Below, one piece after another: positions 8,632 to 54,848 of a stretch of DNA of 64,000 bases. The DNA lies in assembly GCA_000004695.1 (NCBI GenBank), contig CM000150.2:3104001-3168000 (forward strand). Reading direction: 5' to 3'. The stretch's first letter is position 1. The number at the start of each line of letters is the position of its first letter. The translations under genes were made by a program, and so were the position numbers. The stretch comes from Dictyostelium discoideum. Its lineage: Eukaryota. The notes beneath the pieces were generated by a model. It was not told the DNA's origin. It made no database searches and saw only the letters and a list, made by a program, of their open reading frames with translations.

Positions 8632-9076
8632 ATGGAGAAGCAAATAAAGAATGAAAAATTATTTTGGTCAGTTTATAAAAATAAATTTTTAAATGGAATA
8701 ATTTTTAAAAGATCAGAATTTAAATTTTCAGCATATACATACAATGAAATGAATAGTGTTGAGTGGATGATAAAAAATAAACATTTTTCATTATTAAAAG
8801 AAAAGATTATTAGAAATGATAGAAATTTAAATTTTTTTTTAAAGTGTCCATCCCGAATGAAACCAATTAAATGTCAACAAGAAATTTTCAAACATTACAA
8901 AAACGATACAGAATTATTTTCAAATTTATTCAAATATTATAAAGATGACAAATATCTATCACAATTAAATTTAAAAGATTTAGAAAATCATTCAATTGAT
9001 TATGATAATGTAGCATTATTTAAAGTTTTAATAAATGAATTAGGATATTGCTTAGATAATGATAATAATAATAATA

Positions 9077-9158
<82 letters not shown>

Positions 9159-10887
9159 TGATGATAATGATGACGATGATGTTGGTAATACTATGAAAAT
9201 ATTTTACAAATCTATTTATTCTGGGTCATTTGAAATTGCAACTTTTTATATAATTATAATAATAATAATAATAATTATTTTAAAAATCAAAATAAAATAT
9301 GGATTGATACCAATTGGATATAAAAAGTGATCCGAAATTATAATGAAAAAGGTTGATTTCTATTATTCAATAATTTCAAAAGCAATTCCAAAATTTTCAA
9401 AAAGTGATGATAGAGGCGTTGTAATTAAGGATTTGTCAAATCCAGTATTATTTTCAATATCAATTCATTCTTGTCAATTATCATTCATTATAAAATGTTG
9501 TAAAACAATATCATTATTATTATTGATAAATGAACAATCAGAACAATTCAAATATTCAAAAAATGATATCATTGAAATTGAACAATTAAAACAATATGAA
9601 ATTCCAGATTTAATATTTACAAAAGATGAATTAAATTTTAAAATTCAATCATTTGCTTTTAAAAATACAATAGTTCAAAGATTATATAAAATGGTATTAT
9701 TATTTTCAGATTCTTCAAGTCATTCAAATATTGCATTTTATCAAATTAAATACTATGGAGAAATTAATAATAAAATTTATACACATATTTTTAAACCTCA
9801 AAGTTTTGGTTATTATATTAGTGGATTTAAAGATTACAAAACTAATTTATTAAATGAATATTTATTTGAATATTGTAGATATGATAGAAATGAAAGAATC
9901 ATACCATTCTTTAAAGATGCAATCAAAGAAATATTAAATCCATCAATTGATAAATCATTAAAACCAACTAAAAATTTATTAATTAATTATGCAATAATTT
10001 TAAATGATTTGGAAATTTTAGAAATGGTTTATAATAAATTATTCAATATTAAAGGTGATGGTGATGGTGATGATGATCATGGCAATGATAATAATATCAT
10101 TTTATTAGATGAAGTTTATTATAGAAAGGATGTTAAAATATTTGATTTCTATATTAATAAATTATCAGAACAACATAGATTACAAATATTGGATAGAATT
10201 GGTGAGAATTATACATTATCTACTCATTTTAAAAATAATTATCCAATTTATTATAAAAATGCATTACCTCATTATAACCATCCATATCAAGACCAATTGT
10301 ATGTATCAAGATTTTTAACTGAAAATTATAAAGATGTACCAATAAATAACAAACATTTTAAAAACAAATTTGACATTACAAAAAAGTTTCCATTCATAAT
10401 TCACAGAAGTTTATTCATTGATTTTAAATTACCACCATCTAAATTAACATATTTAAATGAAAATGGAACTGAAATTGAATATGAAATTCCACCATACACA
10501 TTACACCAAAATGGTTTTTTATCGGGTATAGCTCATCAATTAAATTGGATTTTAAAATATAGAAATAAAGATATTGAAGATGGGACATTAATAATTACAT
10601 ATGATTTTATATTATTAACTCAATATTTTAGAAATAATATTGAAGAAACCATTTTAAATGATATCAATTCATATTTTAATCAAAAACATGTTAGTCCAAA
10701 AATTTTAAATTTTCTATTAGAAGAAATCGCCAAAAGAGGTGATATTGAAACAATTGAATTCTTAATTAACCAATTTAAAAATAATCAACAATTTTTAAAT
10801 CATATAATTAATCATTCAAAATCAATTTCATTAACAACACCAATTAACCAAATTGATTTTTATAATTATTTAAGTAATAAAAATTAA
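8632..10887 (+). pseudogene. Disrupted paralog (copy 1) of a Dictyostelium-specific multigene family. It is homologous end to end to the intact copy at 12884..15058, but carries compensating frameshifts at about 9243-9310 and an in-frame TGA at 9328-9330. It contains an (AAT)n-encoded poly-N tract at about 9060-9160.
   Basis: ORFs 8632..9330 and 9343..10887 share a frame and are separated by a single TGA. Around 9243-9300 the alignment to copy 2 (YLFNNYFQDILLKEQPESINTLWNEAIGY) is found only in an alternative frame (FLYNYNNNNNYFKNQNKIWIDTNWI). No intron of plausible size rescues the frame. Confidence 0.5.
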
Positions 10888-32925: not shown

Positions 32926-37488
<4,563 letters not shown>

Positions 37489-40186: not shown

Positions 40187-40648
40187 ATGAATAATAATTA
40201 CATCCAAACACTATCATTTTCATCAATTTTTTCATTAATTTTTGGATCAATTAAAATTTGATAAGTTAAATCAGATAATGAAGATACTTTCTCCCAAAAG
40301 TAATTACTTGAAGTTGAAGAGATATATGGTGATTTAAATAGAAAAACATGACCATTGCTCGTTGATGTTGCTAATAATTGAAATCCACCACCTAATGATG
40401 GGAAAAAACATTCTGATAAACTTCCTTTTAAAAAATCAACTTCTGCTTGACTGGTTGCATGTTTTCTAATGATTGGAAATACTGTTGCTTGTGGTTCTCC
40501 TAATTTATAATCATTATAATATTCTTCTTTTGGTATCATTTTAACACTCTCTTTTTTTAATAATCCATTTTTAAAATTCTAATTAAATAAGAAATAATAA
40601 TAATAATATTATTAATAATAAACGTTAATTAATATTTCTTTAAGTTGC

Positions 40649-40699
<51 letters not shown>

Positions 40700-40837
40700 T
40701 TTATCTTTTTATTTACTTACTAAAATGAAAATTGCATTTTTTTGAACAATTGCAAGTTTATTTGATGATTTGGAATAACTTGAGCAATTGAATGTTGATG
40801 AAGATGCTTGTCTTAAACTTAATAAGTCATGAAGCAT
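37822..40837 (-). CDS. Eight-exon gene of about 762 aa: 40721..40837, 40202..40578, 39538..40093, 39127..39455, 38903..39015, 38627..38808, 38229..38523, 37822..38141. It has a WD-like/beta-propeller-like N-terminal region and a Cys-rich C-terminus (CFYC...C.EC...CDFCC...CIYC). It may be a TFIIIC subunit (GTF3C4/TFIIIC90-like, with a zinc-ribbon tail); that identification is tentative.
   Basis: Six minus-strand ORF-track entries (40198..40539, 39508..40068, 39123..39419, 38802..38996, 38182..38493, 37822..38067) are connected by introns with GTAAGT, GTAATT, GTATGT, GTAAGA, GTAATA and GTAAAT donors and poly-T/AG acceptors. Phases 0,2,0,2,1,0,1 all close and the total is 2289 nt. Exon 1 (MLHDLLSLRQASSSTFNCSSYSKSS...) is not in the ORF track. 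Confidence 0.6.
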
Positions 40838-41032
40838 TCTTTAGTTTTATTTTCTTTTGAAATGTAAAAATGAAAAAATGAAAAATAAAAAAAAAATAAA
40901 AAAATGAAAAAAATAAAAAATTAAGAAAAATAAAAAAAAAGTGGGCGCCAATTTTTTATTTATTACCAAAAATGTTTTAGGTGAGGGTGTATCTACATTT
41001 GGAATTTGGGATTTGGAATTTGGAATTTGATT

Positions 41033-41066
<34 letters not shown>

Positions 41067-42249
41067 AAATAAAAAATAATATATAATTATTTTGAAAATA
41101 AATTTTAAAGTATAAAAATAATAAAAAAATAAAAATAAATAATAATAAAATAAAAAAAACTTTAAAAAATAAAAAAAAAATTAACTTCAATACTACATTA
41201 GGAAATTATTGATTTACGTGAGCAATAAAAAAAAAAAAATTTTTTATTTTTTTTTTTTTTTTATTTTACTTTTTTTTTTAAAATTTTTATTTTTACTATT
41301 TATTATTTTTGAAACTTTTTTTTATTTTTTTTTTTTATTTTTTTATTTTTTTTTATTTATTTTAACATTAAATATAAATATCCATTATATCTATTTCAAT
41401 TATGTGCATGTAACCATAGTAAAAAACCACCTATTTTTGTGAGTAAGAACGGAAAAAAAAAAAAAAAAAATTAAAAAAATTAAAAAAAATTAAAAAAATA
41501 TTTCCTTTATTTTTTTTTTATTAATTTTTTTTAATTTTTTTTTTTTTTTAATTTTGATATTATAACACAACACACACAATACTCAATAAAATAAAATAAT
41601 AATAATAAATAATATTAATAACTTATTAAAAACAATAATAATTTATTTCTATAAATATTATATTATCAAATATATTTGTGTGGGCATAGTGAAAAAAAAA
41701 AAAAATAAAAAATAAAAAATAAAAAATAAAAAAAATAATAATAATAATAAATAAAAATAAAAAATAATCTAAAACTCTTTTTTTTATTTTCATCACATAT
41801 TTTTAAACTCATGTTCAATAATAGAATAGAATCATAATTTTAAAAGAAAAGAAAAAAAAAAAAAAAAAAAAAAAAAAAAGAATAAACGACGTTTTAAAAC
41901 GCAAAAATAAAAAAAGAATAAATAAAAAAAAAAAAAAAAAAAAAAATTTCAAAAAAAAAAACAAAAACAATTGTTTTTTAAATTAAAAACTTTTTTTTTT
42001 TTTTTACAACAATAAAGAAAGGCTTGGTTATATACCATTACATAAAAAACAAAAAAAAAAAAAAAAACAAACCAAGTTAACCAATAAAAAATATAATAAA
42101 AATAATAAATTTAATATATAAAAAAAAAAATAATAACTATAGTCAAATATAATAAATATTAATAAATAATAAAAATAATAATAATATATAGAGATTAAAC
42201 CATTATATATTAATATATAATATATATATACAATAGAAATACATAAAGA

Positions 42250-43915
42250 ATGTCAGAAATATTAATAGATAGTGAACTACTTTCTTGTCCAATTTGTGCT
42301 GATACCTTTGTTGATGCATGTGATACAGGTTGTGGTCATACTTTTTGTGATTTTTGTTTAAATAGTTGCTTAGAGAACCGACCTGATAAATGTCCCGTTT
42401 GTTCAAAAGATCCATCACCTGTGCATCCAGCATTTACAATTAGAGCAATTTGCGGTGCTGTTGCGCCACATGTGGTTGAAGACCCAAGGTATGTTGAAAA
42501 ATTTTAATTTTATATCTTATAAATAAAAATAAATAGAAAGAAATAAATAAATAAATAAATAAATAAAAATAAATAGAAATAAATAAAAATAAATAGAAAG
42601 AAATAAAGAAATAAAGAAATAAAGAAAGAAATAAATAAATAAATAAATAAAAATAAATAATATCAAATAAAATAAATAATAAAATACACATATAAAATAA
42701 TATTTTATAAATATAAATATTGTTTAATTAATACCTACCTATTTAATATAATTTAGTATGACAGTAGAATCAGAGAAAGAACTTGGTAATAGTTCATATT
42801 ATAAAAATAAATATGCACAAGCAATTCTTCACTACAATAATGCAATTAATAAATGCACACATACAGATCCAAAAAATTCATACCTGTATAATAATAGATC
42901 ACAATGTTTTATTCATTTACGTCAATTTAAAAGAGCTTTAGATGATTGTGACGAGGCAATAAGATTAAATGATGATAATAGTAAGTATTATTCTTGTCAA
43001 ATTTACAAAATTTCAAATGTAAAAAATATTAACATATCTCTTACCAAACTTTTTATTTTTTTCAGTAAAAGCTTACATGAGAAAAGGTTTATGTTTAAGA
43101 ATGTTAGGTCATTTCGAAGAGAGTAGAGCAGCATATAATAAAGCAACAATTTTAGATAAAGGTGGTGAATGGAAACAACAAATTCAGGATGGTTTAAGAT
43201 TTTACCAGCATCAGCACCATTACCACAACAACAATCACAACAACCACAACAACAGCAACCACAACAACCACAACCACAACCACAACAACAACCACAACAA
43301 CAACAACAACCACAACAACAACAACAACCACAACAACAGCAACAACAACAACCAAGAACTACTCAACCAACTTATACCGCTCAACCACAACCACAACAAC
43401 AATATTATTTCCCATATGGTCAGCAATATACATCAAACTATCCACAATTTAATCAAAATCATGCTAGATATCAATACCCTGGCCATTATACAGTAAGAAC
43501 TAATGGTATCCCAAATCATACTTTCCATCCAAATTATCAATATCATAATATGCAACAACAACAACAGCAACAAGCACAACAACAAGCACAACAACAAGCA
43601 CAACAACAACAACAACAACAAACTCAACAACCACAACCACAACCACCACAACAACCACTACAACAACCACCACAACAACAACAACCACCACAACCACAAG
43701 TTAATACTAGCACAACCAATGTAAATACTACTGTACAACCAACAACAACTACTACTACAACTCAACCTACTTCGACTTCTGCCTCATCAACATCAGCAAC
43801 ATCATCATCAAATTTAAATAATGCACGTACTACAAGCCAACAATCATTGGGTAGTGCTCCAACCACAGGTAAAGGAAGGGGACGATCATCTTCTGGAAAT
43901 TGCAAAAGTCAATAA
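42250..43915 (+). CDS. RING finger (C3HC4: CPIC...CGHTFC..C...CPVC) plus TPR-repeat protein with a Q/P/Y-rich C-terminal region. Exons 42250..42488, 42757..42980 and 43066..about 43496 in frame 0. Reading the Q/P-rich tail through to 43915 requires an unexplained -1/+2 frame change near 43150-43200.
   Basis: Intron 1 is 42489..42756 (GTATGT donor; contains an (AAATAAAT)n repeat). Intron 2 is 42981..43065 (GTAAGT donor, tttttttcag acceptor). TPR motifs are YYKNKYAQAILHYNNAINK and IKAYMRKGLCLRMLGHFEESRAAYNKATILD. Downstream, the frame-2 ORF 43169..43915 uses the preferred CAA and CCA codons and stays open through non-repeat sequence. Confidence 0.5.
42530..42665. repeat. (AAATAAAT)n / (AAATAGAAAG)n-like tandem repeat within intron 1 of the RING-TPR gene.
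   Basis: Seen directly in the sequence. Confidence 0.9.
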
Positions 43916-43956
43916 GATATTTTAATCATGTTCCTTTTTACTGTTATTTATTTTCC

Positions 43957-43992
<36 letters not shown>

Positions 43993-44639
43993 AAAAAAAA
44001 AAAACACAAAAAAATAAGAAAATACTTTTAAAAAGAAATTTATTGGTTAGAACAAAAGCACCAATTCTTTTAAACAAAAACTCAAAAAAACAATAAAGTG
44101 ACCATTTTATTAACGGTCGTTCGAAACAGAATTTTTTTTTTTTTTTTTTTTTTTTTCAATAAAAGATTTTCAGATGTGTGGATCTCAATTTTCTTGGGGT
44201 TATATTGGATTTTTTTTTTTTATTTTTTTTTTTTTTATTGGTCCACTCTTTGAATAGAGTTTAATCACACAGAATAAAAATAGAAAGATAGAATTGTTTT
44301 TTTTTTTTTTTTATTTCTTTTTTTTTTTTTATAAAAATTTCTTTAATTAATTAAAGAAAAAAAAAGAAAAAAAAAAGAAAAAAAAAAAAATAAAAAAAAA
44401 AAACAAAATAAAATAAAAAAATAAAATAAAATAAACAACTGGAATTTTCAAAAGAAAAAGGTTTCAGGTAAGAAAAAAAAATATAAAATTAAATAAAATA
44501 AAATAAAATTTAACAGTAAAAAAGATTTTGGCATTGGAGGAATATATTTTTTTAATTTTTTTTTTTTTTTTTATTTTTTTAATTTTTTTTTTTCGTTTAC
44601 ACATACAACAACTTTTAACTCTTTAAACACAAATACACA

Positions 44640-44778
44640 ATGAATAAATTATTATTAGCTTTCCTTTTCTTTGGTTTAATCGCCTCTGTTACTATTTCTA
44701 TGAAAATTGATGTAAGAACACAAAGTGAACCAAATTTAGGAGATATTCCATTATGTTTGGTAAGTTAGTATTAATTTT

Positions 44779-44818
<40 letters not shown>

Positions 44819-45056
44819 AATATTTTTTCAATTTTAGATCTGTGACTTTGCTGTTGGTAAAATTGAAAAATATTTAGATGATAAAGCAAATACAACTGTT
44901 ATCATTGACAAAGTTGAAAAGGATTGTAATATATTAAGAAATAGTTGGATTGGAAAATGTAAAAATATCGTTACTGAATATGGTCCAAAAATCATTGACC
45001 TTTTGGAAAGTAACGAATCACCAAAAGCAGTTTGTGCTATCATCGATTTATGTTAA
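44640..45056 (+). CDS. Saposin-like (SapLip, amoebapore-like) secreted protein of about 112 aa: signal peptide plus one saposin-B-type domain with 6 Cys. Two exons: 44640..44759 and 44838..45056; the 78-bp intron has a GTAAGT donor.
   Basis: MNKLLLAFLFFGLIASVTISMKIDVRTQSEPNLGDIPLCL joined to ICDFAVGKIEKYLDD...CNILRNSWIGKCKNIVTEYGPKIIDLLESNESPKAVCAIIDLC. The Cys spacing is typical of saposin B. Not in the ORF track, because both exons are too short. Confidence 0.65.
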
Positions 45057-45656
45057 TACCATTAAACAGAATTGAAACATAAAAATAAAAATAAAAATAA
45101 AAATAAAAATAAAAATAAAAATAGATTAAAAAAAAAAAAAAAAAAAACCAAAATTATATGAAAAATTAATTAAAAAAATAATATTATTCATTAAATTAAT
45201 ATATCAAATACAAGGAATGAAATTTTATTTTATATTTTTTTTTTAATTTTTTTTTTTAAAATGAAAAAATAAAAATGGTGGTGTTGAAGTAGTATGGTTA
45301 AATTAAATTAAAATTAATTAAAATCTTTGGTTTAGTTGATAAATTTCTTATTTATATTTGTTTACTTTTGATTTATAAACTTCTCTTTTCTTTATTTTGT
45401 TTTTTTAATTTCGAATTTTTGAACCACTTTTTTACTTAAATAATCCTCATATTCCGAAAATTACACAAAACAAGAAAATAATATCTTTGGAAATAATTAA
45501 TTATTTTCATTATTTAAATTTTAAGGATATTTTATTTTATTTTTGGTGTAATCATTTAATTAGAGACAATTTTAAAATCTGCCCACAAAAAAAAAAAAAA
45601 AAAAAAAATATTTAAGTTAACACTACAACAAATATAAAAACACATTTTTTTTTAAA

Positions 45657-45694
<38 letters not shown>

Positions 45695-46121
45695 GACGCT
45701 ACAAAAAAAAAAAAAATATAATGTTGAAAGTGGTAAAGTGGTGTTAAGGTGGTGGTATTTTTGAAAGTAATAAAGATATGATATAATATTTCATACAATT
45801 TTGCACTATTTGTATTTGAATGATTTTTATTTTTTATTATTTTTTTTTTTTTTAATTATTAAATTATAATTTTTTTTTTTATTTTTTTTTTTCTTTTCTA
45901 ATTTATATTATTATTTTACTATTTATTTATTTAATTGTTATTTTTATTATCTATTTTGAAATCCCCCAAATATAATTGTATGTATGACCCCCCAATTCAC
46001 TCTAATGCATTACAATTAATCAAATTATTTATATTTTTTTTATTTTTTTTTTTATTTAACATATTAAAAACATTAACAATGAATAAAAATAAAAAAAAAA
46101 AAAAAAAAAAAAGAATAAAAT

Positions 46122-46159
<38 letters not shown>

Positions 46160-46645
46160 GAATTATTTAATAAAAATAATAAAAATAATTAATAATAATA
46201 ATATTTTTATTGGATGTTGAATTTTGAAATTTTTATTATTTAATTAGAAAAACTTATTATAAGTGTGCGTCTTTTTTATTAATATAATTTAAATTTGATT
46301 TTTTTTTTAATTAGATGATAACTATAAAAAATAAACAATACTTTTTTTTTTTTTTTTTTTTTTTTTCTTTTTTTTTTTTTTTAAAACAAAAAAGGCATTT
46401 CAAAAAAAAGAAGAAAAAAAAAAAAAATAATAATAAACAATATTGAAATTTAATTTTAACCATAATTTATTTTTTTTATTTATTAATTTTGTATAGTTTC
46501 AAAAAAGACAATATATTGGTCCAAAAAAAAGTAAACAAACCAAAAAAAAAAAAAAAATCAAAAAAAAAAAACTATTTTTAGGAATTCTAAAAATAAAAAA
46601 TAGGGAAAAAAGTAAAGAAATCAAAAAAAAAAAAAAAAAATAAAA

Positions 46646-47839
46646 ATGAAAATAAATTCAATAATTTATTTTTTAAAAATTTTTATTATTATAAATATAT
46701 ATATAATTAAAATTAAAGGAACAGAAGAATGGAAATTTACACAACCAGCATTATTTGAGAGTGTATTATCACCGATGCCAAGTACAAGGACATTGACATG
46801 GAGTGGTACTGATATCACATTGAATATTACATCAAGTAGTGGTCAAAAATCACCAACACAAATATTAGGAATCAATCTTCCAACAAATAGTAGTACATTT
46901 AATAATGTGGATTTATTAAGTTTCTTTTCCAATAAAACCTATGCATCATTTCTCTCACAATTCAATTGCAAATTAAATGCACCAACTTGTGAAGAAATTA
47001 ATTTTAGTGAAAATGTAAACGATGTTTGTTTACTACTTGCATCAGTGGATGGGTACGATCGTGTGTCGCTCTATGGCAGAGATACAACAGCGGGATATGC
47101 GCAATCGGCATTCTCCACTTACAATCAAGTGAAACCACTATCATGGGGAGTAGTTAAAAAGGGTACATTCAATAGTAATGCCAATGCATCGGAATGCTCA
47201 CCAATAATGATCACAGAGAAACATGACTACTTTTCATTGGGTTGTTTTAATCGTGTTTGTGAGAACCCAAATTTCGTCATATTGAAACCAAATATCTCTA
47301 TCAATTATATCAAGATTTGTTATGACTCTTACTCTGCCTCTGAATTTATTATGTATTCATTCGCTAGATGCTCAAATCCATCATTGGAGATCACTCGTCA
47401 ACCATTGTCTATTGATTTCTCAATTGCAGGATACGCTTTTCTTGATAGTCAACCCGCCGATGGTATCTATAATCCATTGGTCGATAGTCCAATGGCTGGT
47501 GTGGTGGTTGAATTGTTAACTTCAAGTGGTTTACCAGTTAGAAATAAACTTGGTATTGTTTTACCCTCAACTACAGACAATCGTGGCTCCTATATCTTTA
47601 GTGATGTTGCCAGAGGTGCCTATCGTATTAAATTCACTTTTCCACCTCAATACGAACCAACTATTAAAATTAAAAATGCTGATAATTATAAATCTTCAAA
47701 AATTAATCCAAATTTCTCAACTGATCTCTATATACTTTCAAATACTGCCTTGGGTGTAAGATTGACAACAACTGATGATATTGGTGTTACAACTGATAGA
47801 ATCTTACCTGGTATTAATGGTGGAGTAGTTGGAATATAA
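46646..47839 (+). CDS. Secreted protein (397 aa) with an N-terminal signal peptide, a Cys-rich region and a C-terminal SdrD-B-like/Cna-B-type fold (AGYAFLDSQPADGIYNP...AGVVVELLTSSGLPV...TTTDNRGSYIFSDVARGAYRIKF).
   Basis: Single ORF. A hydrophobic N-terminus is followed by the characteristic SdrD-B-like motif, read directly from the translation. Confidence 0.6.
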   Translation: MKINSIIYFLKIFIIINIYIIKIKGTEEWKFTQPALFESVLSPMPSTRTLTWSGTDITLNITSSSGQKSPTQILGINLPTNSSTFNNVDLLSFFSNKTYASFLSQFNCKLNAPTCEEINFSENVNDVCLLLASVDGYDRVSLYGRDTTAGYAQSAFSTYNQVKPLSWGVVKKGTFNSNANASECSPIMITEKHDYFSLGCFNRVCENPNFVILKPNISINYIKICYDSYSASEFIMYSFARCSNPSLEITRQPLSIDFSIAGYAFLDSQPADGIYNPLVDSPMAGVVVELLTSSGLPVRNKLGIVLPSTTDNRGSYIFSDVARGAYRIKFTFPPQYEPTIKIKNADNYKSSKINPNFSTDLYILSNTALGVRLTTTDDIGVTTDRILPGINGGVVGI

Positions 47840-48243
47840 ATTTACCAATTTAAAGAAAGAAAAAAAAAAAAAAAAAAAAAAAAAAACTTAAAACTTAAAA
47901 CTTTACCAAGTCAAAAGTTTAAATTTAAAAATAAAAATAAAATAAATAATATCTAATAATTGTAACAAATATTAGTTAAAGTATATATATATATATTTGT
48001 ATTTTAGTTATTTTTAAAATTTGATATATCTTTTTTTTTTTATTTTTTTAGATTCCAAAAAATCAATTATCTATTTTCAAAAAAAAAAATTAATAACATA
48101 TAATGGTACAATGACAATTTCAAAAAAAAAAAAAAAAAAAAAAAGATACCAAAAAATTGAAAAAAAAAGATATAGATAGGGCAGATACGGATAATTAATT
48201 GATGGCTATAAAAAAAAAAGTTCAGAAAAAAAAAAAAGTTTAG

Positions 48244-48279
<36 letters not shown>

Positions 48280-48347
48280 TTTAAAAATATCTTCAATCAA
48301 CTTTTTTGTTTTCATTTAAAAAACGAAAAAAAAAAAAAAAAAGTAAC

Positions 48348-48766
48348 ATGTCATTTAAATTTAATTTTCAAGTTGATGAAGATGAAAATGATAATGGTAA
48401 TAATAATGAACAAAATAATGAAGAAAGTAAATTAGATATATCTGAATTTGATTCAAGCTCTAAAATGGATGAATTACCATCAAAATATATTGATTTAAGA
48501 GTAAATATTACATTATATATATATTTATATATATATATATATTTGATTAGAAATTGAAACTATAGTTTCAATAGATTTTTTAAATTTAAATATTTATCAT
48601 TAATAACATTACTTTTCATAGAATAATTTAAGTAGTTTATTATCAAATGTTGAAACTGAAATAGTAACATTTTCATCAAATAATAAATTAAAAAAATTAG
48701 TTAAACCTTTCAAAGGAAATCAAGATAATAATAATGATAATAATGTAAATAGTAATGATAAAAATG

Positions 48767-48798
<32 letters not shown>

Positions 48799-49386
48799 GA
48801 TTATGAAAAATTATTGGATAAAACAGATTTAATACCAGGTGTATATGAAGGTGGTTTTAAGCTATGGGAATGTTCAATTGATATTATAAATTATTTATTT
48901 GAAGAAAAAATTGATTTAAGTGGTAAAAAGGTATTAGAAATTGGTTGTGGTCATGGTTTACCAGGAATTTATTGTTTATTAAATGGTTCAATAGTAACAT
49001 TTCAAGATTATGTATGTAAAATAACTTTTTTTATGTATATTTTTTTTTTTTATTATTTTATTATTAAATATTAAGTTTTTTTTTTATATTGATTTAATTT
49101 TTTATAAACAATTAAATAATAAAATAAAAAAAATAAAAAATAAAAAAATTAAAGAATGAAGAAGTAATTTATAATTTAACCCAACCAAATGTTTTAATAA
49201 ATGGTGGTGATATAAATAGAGCAAAATATATTTCAGGTGATTGGAAATTTGTTGACCAATTATTAAAAAACGAAAAATTTGATATAATTTTAACATCAGT
49301 AAGTATTTAATACAAAAAAAAAAAAATAAAAAAAAAATTAAATCGAACAAGATATCTTTATCTTTTATTAACTTTTTTTAAATATT

Positions 49387-49417
<31 letters not shown>

Positions 49418-49799
49418 TTATTATTACTAGGATACATTATATAATGTTGGATCATTTAAAAAACTTTATAATTTAATTTCAAATCATTTAGAATCAAATG
49501 GAAAATGGTAGTTATTTATTTATCTTATTATTTATATTATTATTATTTTTTTAAAAAAAAACCTATAATTAACAACAAACAAATAACGACAACTTAATTA
49601 ATCAAAATTTTATTGTTTTTATTTGTAAAATAGTTATTTAGCTAGTAAAACCTATTATTTTGGAGTGGGTGGAGGTATTAGAAAATTTGAAGAATTATTA
49701 AAGATCTTGAATAGATTATCTATAAAAACAGTAAGGGATATTAAAGATGGTTTATCAAATGTGAGAGAAGTCGTTGAAATTACAAATAAAATAAATTAG
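48348..49799 (+). CDS. METTL18/Hpm1-like histidine protein methyltransferase (Methyltransf_16 family), about 309 aa, 5 exons: 48348..48500, 48622..49011, 49155..49298, 49431..49507, 49634..49799.
   Basis: N-terminal MSFKFNFQ matches human METTL18 MTFQFNF. DLIPGVYEGGFKLWECSIDI...KVLEIGCGHGLPGI (SAM motif I) matches SDLITGVYEGGLKIWECTFDL...KVLDLGCGSGLLGI. Exons 3-5 encode YISGDWKF...FDIILTS / DTLYNVGSFKKLYNLISNHLESNGK / YLASKTYYFGVGGGIRKFEELL, matching the METTL18 C-terminus. Donors are GTAAAT, GTATGT, GTAAGT and GTAGTT. The true start is probably the ATG at 48348, not 48306. Confidence 0.7.
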
Positions 49800-50316
49800 T
49801 TATAATTTTCTAAATCTTTTTTTTTTTCTTATCTTTTATTATTTATTTTATTTTGTTTTTTTTTTTTTTAAAAAAAAAAAAAGTAATAATATAAAAAAGA
49901 AAAAAAAAAGAAAAAAGAAAAAAGGAAAATAAAAATAATAATTTTAATAATCCATTTTGCAATTAATTCATTAATTCATTTTCATTCATTAAAACTTAAT
50001 TATAGTATAAAGTTATACTGTCTCAAGCTAGTATAAATATATAAATAAGTGTGGATTATTGTTGTGTTTATTAATTTGGGGTTCTTTTTAATATGTATTA
50101 ACAGGTGAGTTTGTGTGTGTGTGGGTTTTTGATTTTGTTTAAAAAAAAAAAATGGGAAAATTAAAATTAAAAAATTTTTTTTATAGATATATAAATATAA
50201 ATATTTTTTAATCTATAAAAAAAAAATTTTCATACAAGTAGATTGAATGAGCTGTCATTTTTGTGTGCTTGGTTAAAAGTTTTATTTTAATTGGTTTAGT
50301 GGGTTTTTTGCTGAGC

Positions 50317-50355
<39 letters not shown>

Positions 50356-51006
50356 ATTTGTTTTTTCCAAAGTGGGGTAATTAATAAAAATAATTTATTT
50401 ATACAAATCAAATTTGATAATTTAATTATAAAAAAAAAAATTAAAATTGTTTCCTATTAGATTTCAAATGCACATTCATTTAAAAAAGTTTAAACAATAT
50501 ATACCCACACTACAATATCTTTGGCTTTAAATTTTAAACAAAAAAAAAAAAAAATATAAAAATAAAAATATTGATATATGCATAAATATAGTTATTAATA
50601 ACAATGAATAAAAAACAAAAAAATGTAAAATAAAAAAATAAAAATAACAACACAGTTAATCTGAAAAAAAAAAAAAAAAAAATAATGTTTTTAAGAGTGA
50701 GATATTGAGTGTAATATATATTAAATTAAAATTTAAAAGAGTAAAAAAATTGAATGATAAAATAATACAAATAATTATTTTCATTATATAAATTAAAAAT
50801 TTTATTAATTTAAATAGTGTAATAATAGAGTGATAATTGTAAACTTTCTGTTTCGAAAACAAAAATAAATAAATAAAAATATTACCGATATACATTGCAC
50901 CTACCAAATAATTATAAAATAATTAAAAAAGGTATATTTAATTATTTGTTTATTTAATTTTAATTTATTTTATTTTATTTTTATTTTTATTTTTATTTTA
51001 TTTTTT

Positions 51007-51057
<51 letters not shown>

Positions 51058-51376
51058 GAGAGACCAAGAATAAATTCTATTAATATTAAATAATAAAAAA
51101 AAAATTAGAATAAAACAAAATAATAATAAATAACAACAACTATACCCTCTTATTAACAATAATAAATTAAATTGTATTAAATAACAACAATTAACCAATT
51201 TGAATTTTTTTATTTTATTTTTTTTTAAATTTATTTATTTATTTTTTATTTATTTCATTTTTTTTATTTTTTTTTATTTTTTTATTTTTTTATAATTGTT
51301 TTAAATTAATTGAAAATATCATTTCATTTTTTTTTCCATTCTTTCCCTTTCTTATTCTTCAATCCCCTTTATTTTT

Positions 51377-51407
<31 letters not shown>

Positions 51408-51420
51408 AGAAAATTAAAAA

Positions 51421-53129
51421 ATGATATTTAAATTTTTTTTTATTTTTTTTTTAATTATTTTAGTTATAAAAATTTCAGAATCAGTCGATAGCACTGTAAA
51501 TGTACATTTAATTAAATCAAGAACCGAGCTTGCATATAGTTTTAAAGAGGTATTATATTAAAATATTTATTTTTATTATTTTTGAAAAAAAAAAAAAAGA
51601 ATTATTTTTTAGTATAAGAAATATTTTAATAACAAAAAAATAATTATTTTATTCCTTTATTTAAATTATTTTAATTTAATTTAATTCTTAATTTTAATAA
51701 TAATAATATTAAAAAATTAATTATTTAAAAAAAAAAAAAATGAATAATTTAATTTTTTTATTTTTTTATTTTTTTTTTTAAAATAATTATTAATTATTAG
51801 TCATTATCATTTAAAACAATTTCATTTGATGATGAAAGTAATAAAATTGATTATGATGAATTTTTAAAATTCCATAATTTTTTACAAAATAAATTTCCAA
51901 TAATCCATAGAGTTTTAAAGAGGACAGTAATAAATAAATATTCATTATTATTTGAATGGACAGGAAGTGATAAAACATTGAAACCTTTATTATTAAATTC
52001 ACATTATGATGTTGTACCAGTAACAGAATCAGAATGGACATTTAATCCATGGGGAGAAATTAGAAACGATAATATTTATGGACGTGGATCAATTGACAAT
52101 AAGGTAATAGTAATGGCAACTATGGAATCGATTGAAGCCATTTTAGCAAACAATTACACTCAACCAATTCGTACCATTTATCTATGTTTTGGACATGATG
52201 AAGAGCTTGGTGGATTGAATGGTCATAGAATGATCGCCAGACATTTCAGAGAGAATTTAGTTAGAGCAGAGGCAATCTTTGATGAGGGTTGTCCATTTTT
52301 AGCATCTAATTTCGTTCCAGGATTTCACGACATTATTGCAGGTGTTGGAGTATTTGAAAAAGGTTACCTATTTTATAAATTAACATCAAAGGTTAATTCA
52401 TTCACCCATTCTGCAATACCACCAAAAGAATCTGCAATTGGTATCCTCTCAAAGGCATTGGCAAAGATTGAATCAAATCCATTCGCACCAATTGAAAATA
52501 TTGAAAAGAAGAATCAACTCTTACAATTATTCAATGGTGAAACTATAAAATCAAATCCATTCTTAGATGCAATGACAAAAACCACCACAGCATTGTCAAT
52601 GATACATGCAGGTACAAAACCAAATATAATACCAACAACCGCTTCAGCTTGGGTGTCACATAGAATTATTAATGGAAATTCAATTGAATATGTAAAGAGT
52701 AGAATTTTGGATTTAATTAATGATACAAGAATCACAATGGAAATTGAAGGATTTTTAGAACCTTCTCCAATTAGTTCACCATTTACAACTGCATACCAAA
52801 TACTTAAACAAACCATCTATCAACAATTTGGAGGTTACAATGTAAAGGTTGTACCAACTCAATTGATGGCAAATACCGATACTCGTCATTATTGGGATAT
52901 CACTGATAATATCTATCGTTTCATGCCGATCGTTGGTAATTTCATGGATTTTGTCTCAATACATGGTAGTAATGAAAAAATTTCAATTGATGATTATATT
53001 AAAACAATTCATTTCTATAAAAAATTGATTTTAAATTTTCAACCATTCTCAAACTCTTCAAATAGTAATTATATTAATAAAAATTTGAAAATAAATGATT
53101 ATTGTCCAAATTCAATTTATTCAAAATAA
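51421..53129 (+). CDS. Peptidase M20 family (carboxypeptidase S-like) protein with signal peptide, about 485 aa. Two exons: 51421..51549 and 51801..53129; intron 51550..51800.
   Basis: ORF 51978..53129 carries M20 motifs (HYDVVP, GRGSIDNK, the CFGHDEELGG metal-binding block). The frame is open upstream to a tag at 51798-51800 that forms the acceptor. Exon 1 (MIFKFFFIFFLIILVIKISESVDSTVNVHLIKSRTELAYSFKE) supplies the signal peptide. The GTATTA donor is weaker than canonical. Confidence 0.65.
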
Positions 53130-53202
53130 AATAAATAAATAAATAAATAAATAAAATAAAACTAATGTATTTTTAAATATTCAATATATGTATAAAATGT
53201 AT

Positions 53203-54848
53203 TTATTTTGATGAATTTTTTGTATTATCATCTTCGTATGGTTTTCTATCAACTTTTCTTAATAATTCATTTCTAACCTTATCTCTTTGTTCAATACCAT
53301 CAAATACTGGACCAAATGGTGGTCTTGGTACAAATCTACCACTACCTTTGACACATGATAATTTATTATCAGACCAAACGATATTACCAGCTACGATTGT
53401 GGTAACTGCTATACCAGTTACTTTGATACCTTCGAAAATGTTAAAATCAACTGCATGATGATGAGTATCCTTTGAGATGGTTTTTGATTGATTTGGATCC
53501 CAAATGACGATATCACCATCACAACCAACATCGATACGACCTTTTCTTGGATAAATATTGAAAATACGAGCAGCTTCTGAAGAGGTTGCTCTAACGAATT
53601 GACACCATGTTAATTTACCAGTATTGACACCATTCTCCCAAACGATTGACATTCTATCTTCAACACCATTTACACCATTTGGAATTTTGGTGAAATCATC
53701 TTTACCCATTGCTTTTTGGTCAGCACAGAATGTACAATTATCAGTACCAACACAATCGAGGTCACCTCTTGCTAAATAATCCATTAATACACCTTTAGTT
53801 CTTGGATCTGGACGAATTGGTGGTCCCATTACAAATGCTGCAGCATGTCTCCAATCATGATTCCACATATGGGATCCGTCAACACCTAAACCTGCTGCAA
53901 TTGGTTCACCGTATACTCTAACACCCTCTTTTCTATGTTTACAAATTACATCGGCTGCACCAATAGATTGAACGTGAACAATATAAACTGGTGTGCAAAC
54001 ACTATCGGCAATGACGATGGCTCTATTGGTCGCTTCGGCTTCCAATGCCTCTGGTCTTGATAATTCGTGACCTTCTGGTCCTGTAATACCCATTTCTAAC
54101 ATTTTCTTTTGTCCTTCGAATACCATATCACCATTTTCGGCATGTACTTGTGCGATGGCACCCAACTCTTTACATCTCTTGAAAATATGATACATCTCTT
54201 GATCTGTAACCATAAAACTATTCTTGTAGGCCATAAAACATTTGAAACTATTTACACCTCTCTCTTTAACCAATATTTCCATCTCCCTTGAAACTTGTTC
54301 ACTCCACCATGTAATTGCAACATGTAATGAATAATCACAATTAACCTTTTCATCTGCCCATTTCTTCCATTGGTCATAAGCTTCCAATAATGATTGTCCT
54401 CTAGTTGGAATTACAAAATCAATAATAAATGTTGTACCACCTGCTACTGCTGCTTGTGTACCAATATCAAAATCATCAACTGAAACTGTACCCATAAATG
54501 GTAATTGGAAATGCTAAAAATTAAAAATTATAAAAAAAAAATTAAAAAAGTGAAATTTCAAAATTTAAAATTGTTTTAAAAAAAAAAAAAAAAAAAAAAA
54601 AATGTATCTATATAAATAAATAAAAGAAAAACTATTATAATATTTACTGTATGAGTATCAATACCACCTGGTAATAATAATTTATCAGTTGCATCGACAA
54701 CTTTAATACCTTCTTTTGGTTCAATATTTTTAGAAATTTCTTTAATAATTCCATTTTCAACTAAAACATCAGATTTAAAGTATCTATCGTCGTTCACAAC
54801 AGTACCATTTTTTATTAATATTGTCCCTGTTTGATCGACTCTAAGCAT
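53203..54848 (-). CDS. pyd2: Dihydropyrimidinase (cyclic amidohydrolase/hydantoinase family), 503 aa. Two exons: 54648..54848 and 53203..54513; intron 54514..54647 (GTAAAT donor).
   Basis: Splicing restores the metal-binding motif [15 protein letters not shown] across the exon junction. The total of 67+436 = 503 aa matches the length I recall for Dictyostelium DHPase. Conserved carboxylated-lysine and His/Asp regions of the DHPase fold are present. Confidence 0.8.

Follow-up and report, generated by a model that had tools for sequence, protein, structure and literature searches.

Breaks of the reading frame inside a gene have several described counterparts. Programmed -1 frameshift sites, known from many RNA viruses and some cellular genes, rely on a slippery heptamer and a stimulatory structure; strain-specific frameshift alleles and pseudogenes carry lesions private to one lineage; and homopolymer-length miscalls in assemblies are recognised by correction of the run restoring a conserved ORF. 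Concerning Dictyostelium, NTG mutagenesis has been found to give 16-30 SNVs and only 0.1-1.0 indels per genome, in a study in which pre-existing variants of the parental strains had to be filtered out, and whose main text is without a site-level variant list (Li et al., 2016; PMC5052037). More recently, AX2-214 and nine wild isolates were sequenced by Nanopore plus Illumina (PRJNA1300491; Holland et al., 2025; PMC12745789).

The gene described here lies in a stretch of 64,000 nucleotides (hereafter the window) of the D. discoideum AX4 chromosome 1 reference (2005 Sanger), three ORFs of which are exact matches to the AX4 proteins DDB_G0269606, DDB_G0269618 and DDB_G0269246; a tRNA scan found no tRNA genes in the window. 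It spans 42250-43915 (1,666 nt; Table 1), and its reading frame breaks in the third exon at a run of four T (T4), where other strains have five (T5). Relative to this ancestral T5, the window almost certainly lacks a single base, with no part played by splicing or recoding, a core that is shared by the readings of the missing base as an error and as a real deletion. We consider it probable that the T was lost through a base-calling or assembly error of the 2005 reference. The locus would then be an ordinary three-exon gene in which the AX4 reference writes a run of five T as four (43200-43203). The one lost base would shift all downstream sequence to the -1 (+2) frame, making a fake H/N-rich tail in frame 0 and leaving the true tail as a detached ORF in frame 2, and neither splicing nor recoding would be needed to account for it.

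Table 1. Coordinates of the RING-TPR gene and of its frame break in the window.
Feature	Position	Strand	Remarks
Exon 1	42250-42488	+	Holds the start codon and encodes a C3HC4 RING finger; supported by the ORF and by a GTATGT donor (42489)
Intron 1	42489-42756	+	268 nt, GTATGT...TTTAG, 92% A+T; holds minisatellites, length-polymorphic between strains
Exon 2	42757-42980	+	TPR repeats 1-2; colinear with homologue contig L001
Intron 2	42981-43065	+	85 nt, GTAAGT...TTTCAG, 81% A+T; absent from L001, which reads through
Exon 3, first part	43066-43199	+	Frame 0: third TPR, then ...EWKQQIQDGLR; conserved in homologues
Frame-break site	43200-43203	+	TTTT in the window; TTTTT in four of four other assemblies
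Exon 3, second part	43202-43915	+	Frame 2: LPASAPLP, Q/P-rich region, conserved YPQFNQNHARYQYPGHYTVR block, S/T-rich region, stop 43913-43915
Frame-0 continuation, spurious	43204-43496	+	H/N-rich, stop 43494-43496; a real product only should T4 be a true allele of AX4
CaaX-like C-terminus CKSQ	43901-43912	+	Readable in frame 2 only
Peptide at the junction			...DGLRFLPASAPLP... (joined to the conserved tail) versus ...DGLRFYQHQHHYH... (T4 product)

In frame 0, exon 3 encodes a TPR (...KAYMRKGLCLRMLGHFEESRAAYNKATILD...), whose best stretch covers residues 156-185 for TPR_1 and 156-186 for TPR_2 (Pfam); the product then continues as ...KAYMRKGLCLRMLGHFEESRAAYNKATILDKGGEWKQQIQDGLR and passes into an H/N-rich stretch up to the stop at 43494-43496. 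The initial annotation had delimited this gene and reported a frame discontinuity within it, and all of its gene coordinates, as well as the discontinuity, were confirmed on rechecking; the end of frame 0 at 43496 and the opening of frame 2 over 43169-43915, for 140 codons further, were both reproduced. It had also taken CAA and CCA for preferred codons and AAC and CAC for rare ones, and had called for codon-usage scoring of both frames. With codon usage trained on eight long ORFs of the window, this preference is borne out, CAA making up 96% of Gln and CCA 83% of Pro, versus 11% of Asn for AAC and 8% of His for CAC. Scored as mean log-odds per codon, frame 0 reaches +0.54 over 43066-43199 with no stops, the other two frames having -0.23 and -0.40 with 6 and 5 stops, respectively. 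Downstream of 43200 it is frame 2 that wins, with +1.37 (43200-43345), +0.58 (43346-43496) and +0.75 (43497-43915), against -1.49, -0.56 and -0.80 for frame 0 over the same three intervals. Since codon scores, stop counts and homologue alignments concur, the window sequence has a genuine frame switch at about 43200, which is not due to chance.

A homology search with the RING-TPR part as query identified eight homologues, among them one in Acytostelium subglobosum (68% identity) and the product of a JGI contig (L001), with 82% identity over exons 2-3. The start of this environmental contig (positions 1-1149, JGI sample 3300028160) coincides exactly with that of exon 2, and intron 2 is missing from it; the contig probably derives from a transcript of another group-4 dictyostelid. 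Homologues that extend beyond the last TPR share the arrangement W-x-x-x-I-x-(D/E)-(G/A)-L-x-x-L-P, followed by a low-complexity, often Q/P-rich region and by an end of the form C-x-x-Q/M/C. Two residues separate the L from the LP in these proteins. At the same place the window offers 5 nt only, GGT TTA (G L, frame 0) ending at 43196 and TTA CCA (L P, frame 2) starting at 43202; as every homologue has two codons here, the window has one base too few. L001 reads GATGGTTTAATGGCATTACCAG at the break, one base more than the GATGGTTTAAGATTTTACCAG of the window. Further downstream, the closest homologue carries YPQFNPQHARYQYPGNYTVRS, matching YPQFNQNHARYQYPGHYTVRT in frame 2 of the window, and the frame-2 block YPQFN.QHARYQYPG.YTVR is common to homologues, as is the terminal C-x-x-Q. 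The H/N-rich tail is present in no aligned homologue. A Cys at position -4 is invariant in all nine aligned homologues (CKSQ, CKNQ, CKTQ, CKQQ, CSTQ, CTTQ, CSVQ, CIIM and CLIC).

No product of this gene from the D. discoideum group was found in the protein collection by homology search or exact look-ups, which is uninformative on its annotation status, since four assemblies annotate one. The exact look-ups that gave no match in that collection comprised the ORFs of 248 aa and 139 aa present with T4 and that of 279 aa present with T5, two exon ORFs and three wild-strain proteins, together with the products of eight intron models, of the frame-0 model and of the T5 model. ORF 32926-37488, elsewhere in the window, likewise gave no match on look-up. 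A literature search on the DDB_G026961x identifiers also returned no match.

Through the neighbour gene DDB_G0269618 and its orthologues we reached the syntenic locus in four NCBI assemblies, GCA_054883475.1 (L002), GCA_054859385.1 (L003), GCA_054859205.1 (L004, D. cf. discoideum) and GCA_054859355.1 (L005), which seem to have come out of the sequencing project described by Holland et al. (2025; PMC12745789). L003, L004 and L005 represent more distant strains, either D. discoideum or D. cf. discoideum, and L002 is probably AX2-214, judging from its near-identity to AX4 and from the strain list of that project (Holland et al., 2025; PMC12745789) rather than from its record. Each assembly has an annotated gene at the syntenic place, with products of 437, 446, 450 and 441 aa, and our exon model reproduces exactly these lengths, with a single terminal stop in each. 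All four have TTTTT where the window has TTTT (43200-43203). Across the 1,666-nt gene, exon 1 of which is the same in both, this one T is the sole difference between L002 and the window, and there is no SNP between them over 13 kb. The T5 junction reads AGA TTT TTA CCA GCA (R F L P A), giving ...QDGLRFLPASAPLPQQQ..., and its peptide ...QDGLRFLPASAPLP fits the "DGLxxLP" spacing of the homologues; the three exons then form an uninterrupted 437-aa protein, colinear with homologues, that ends in ...GNCKSQ.

The tail read in frame 2 also evolves as a coding sequence would. Among strains, 11 of 14 substitutions in its non-repetitive part fall at position 3 of frame-2 codons, three at position 1 and none at position 2, and every coding indel among the five sequences compared is a multiple of three (CAA/CCA repeat-number changes). 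Judging from this pattern, purifying selection acts on the gene in all other strains. The initial annotation had taken frame 2 for the more likely downstream frame, with which codon scores, substitution pattern and homologues all agree. Its view that a colinear reading of the DNA as it stands cannot give the protein is upheld as well, the window being one base short compared with the other assemblies.

Repeat number is strain-variable in the Q/P-rich and T-rich tracts (43230-43345 and 43560-43750), always by multiples of three. Intron 1 also varies strongly in length across strains (42496-42748): an (ACCT)n microsatellite at about 42732 has 22 additional units (88 nt) in L003 and two in L005, and an AAATAAA(G)-type minisatellite (42539-42654) is mostly deleted in wild strains.

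The predicted product has 437 aa: a C3HC4 RING at the N-terminus is followed by three TPRs and by a low-complexity region rich in Q and P, and the protein has a C-terminus that is conserved and CaaX-like. RING and TPR are both above the Pfam gathering scores, with 34.3 bits for zf-C3HC4 (residues 13-51, encoded by exon 1; cutoff 21), 54.2 for TPR_2 (cutoff 27) and 48.1 for TPR_1 (cutoff 27.8). The RING is closest to those of RNF4 and RNF8. The TPR domain is closest to the class that binds C-terminal peptides of Hsp70/Hsp90 (SPAG1, STIP1/HOP, RPAP3, TOM70 and CHIP, E 2e-29 to 1e-9), far ahead of other TPR proteins; the TPR region corresponds to 42757-43199 of the window and to about residues 80-200 of the protein. 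The conservation of the Cys at -4 suggests a prenylation signal of the CaaX type, which no frame but frame 2 is able to supply, and the protein may be prenylated. Taken together, these features hint at a chaperone-linked E3 ligase, CHIP-like with reversed domain order and with a possible lipid anchor, and are best regarded as a lead.

The features by which an indel error is recognised are found at this site: the change is of one unit in a mononucleotide run, its correction restores a conserved ORF, and a near-isogenic independent assembly (L002, the presumed AX2-214) has T5. A miscall of T5 as T4 is not the commonest type of Sanger error, and runs this short are usually read reliably. The same base could instead have been lost for real, through a 1-bp deletion in the laboratory lineage of AX3/AX4, in which case AX4 would carry a frameshift allele. 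T4 is after all what the window sequence itself shows, and its disagreement with the AX2-like assembly and with every wild one is what a lineage-specific mutation would also give; indeed, a genuine deletion in the AX3/AX4 lineage would have the same outcome in all tests that we ran. Moreover, laboratory stocks do differ from the reference, as indicated by the filtering of parental variants in Li et al. (2016; PMC5052037).

To compare error with mutation, we aligned 35.4 kb of the window with the AX2-like assembly (window 2884-25058 with its contig L006 and 40646-53839 with L002). Apart from the T4/T5 site and a 125-bp cluster at 9310-9435, all differences lie in or next to A/T runs of at least 11 nt, as changes of run length or adjacent miscalls, and clean SNPs are absent from the whole 35 kb. 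With a single exception, the length differences leave the window with the longer run, which fits homopolymer compression in a long-read assembly; at an A63 run, the assembly is 45 nt short of the window. Such a very low real divergence speaks against a real deletion, as do the purifying selection that acts on the gene in all other strains and the mutagenesis data on Dictyostelium, which show far fewer indels in short runs than SNVs (Li et al., 2016; PMC5052037). As SNVs far outnumber indels in these NTG data (PMC5052037), a lone real indel without nearby SNVs would be the rarer event.

The seven private, technical-looking differences that cluster in the same window also count against a real deletion. 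In the 9310-9435 cluster, the window has four extra single bases exactly 12 nt apart (9310 C, 9322 A, 9334 G and 9346 A) and three substitutions (9382, 9429 and 9435), and it is the outlier at all seven sites, where the AX2-like assembly (L006) and a diverged wild strain (L007) agree. Minus the extra bases, one frame is open through ...KIWIDTIGYKSDPNYNEKVDFYYSIISK..., where a stop at 9328-9330 in the window splits the ORFs 8632-9330 and 9343-10887. The cluster looks technical because seven private changes occur in 125 bp, yet no clean SNP over 35 kb, and this suggests local errors of the reference sequence in the window.

On balance, a real deletion in the AX3/AX4 lineage seems to us unlikely. 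Should T4 nevertheless be true, the AX4 product would retain RING and TPR but finish with 98 aberrant H/N-rich residues; it would lack the conserved Q/P region as well as the CaaX-like end, a putative prenylation signal, both of which are intact in AX2 and wild isolates. It would then be a loss-of-function allele of a laboratory strain, of modest interest, that could contribute to phenotypic differences between AX2 and AX4, the latter being the most widely used Dictyostelium reference strain.

Three alternatives had been envisaged at the outset for the frame break, namely a one-base indel, a very short or non-canonical intron, and programmed frameshifting, of which the first is the one that the T5 run in four of four assemblies bears out. 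An intron joining the two frames has a very low probability in our view, even though a full enumeration gives 20 GT-AG intervals with a length congruent to 2 mod 3 that yield an open reading frame, for example 43192-43208 (17 nt), 43162-43208 (47 nt) and 43123-43187 (65 nt). The candidates have an A+T content of 64-71%, close to that of the exon (69%), against 81% and 92% in the true introns of the gene, and their donors (GTTTAA, GTGGTG, GTAGAG and GTCATT) are unlike its own GTATGT and GTAAGT. All candidates of at least 44 nt delete conserved residues of the TPR or of EWKQQIQDGL, and the hypothetical CCAG acceptor is CCTG in L003 and L005, a change that is synonymous in frame 2. In donor and A+T content, as well as in conservation of the protein and of the splice sites, the candidates thereby depart from what is expected of spliceosomal introns, and L001 and the four assemblies have no need for an intron at the break. 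The initial annotation had stated that no intron of plausible length (60 bp or more, 2 mod 3) fits between 43066 and 43200: literally this does not hold, given the intervals 43123-43187 (65 nt), 43108-43187 (80 nt) and 43087-43187 (101 nt), but A+T content, donors and conserved residues leave none of them plausible, and in this sense the statement stands.

Programmed -1 ribosomal frameshifting, or transcriptional slippage, at AGA-TTT-TAC that would restore the conserved tail from a T4 template is highly improbable. In its favour are the required shift of -1, the position of the break on a T run and the conservation of the frame-2 tail. Against it, the interval 43150-43260 is free of X_XXY_YYZ heptamers in all phases, the downstream RNA (43195-43320, 126 nt, 94% A+C) has an MFE of only -0.8 kcal/mol, 43206-43345 holds 4 G and 4 T only in 140 nt, polymerases do not slip efficiently on runs as short as four T, and no relative has the two-frame layout, the four assemblies and L001 being single-frame, so that there is nothing conserved to program.

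The frame break is most likely an artefact of the reference sequence, and its main consequence is for annotation. One RING-TPR-CaaX gene with a product of 437 aa is the appropriate model for the locus, in preference to a pseudogene, to two genes or to a truncated protein with an H/N tail; nor should the locus be put forward as a case of recoding or of micro-introns in Dictyostelium. Other frame breaks in the AX4 reference window, such as that at 9310-9435, can be checked in the same manner against newer long-read assemblies.

Compared with known systems, the locus resembles programmed -1 frameshift sites in its overlapping frames, the downstream one being at -1 and coding, but has neither their heptamer and structure nor a conserved two-frame layout. 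With strain-specific frameshift alleles and pseudogenes it shares a 1-bp deletion in a coding T run that is private to one lineage, with intact relatives; unlike these, it displays no further decay, the gene being otherwise identical to the intact AX2-like gene. The likeness to homopolymer-length miscalls in assemblies extends to the single-base difference in a run, the conserved ORF restored by its correction, the disagreement with other assemblies (one of them near-isogenic) and the second technical-looking cluster, the difference being that the run is short here (4 vs 5). As for the protein, it recalls CHIP/STUB1 and other TPR E3 ligases in the union of a TPR of the Hsp70/Hsp90 class with an E2-recruiting zinc-finger-type domain, chaperone binding and ligase activity being putative. 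Whereas CHIP has a C-terminal U-box, the protein encoded in the window has its C3HC4 RING at the N-terminus, followed by a long Q/P-rich tail and a conserved CaaX-like end.
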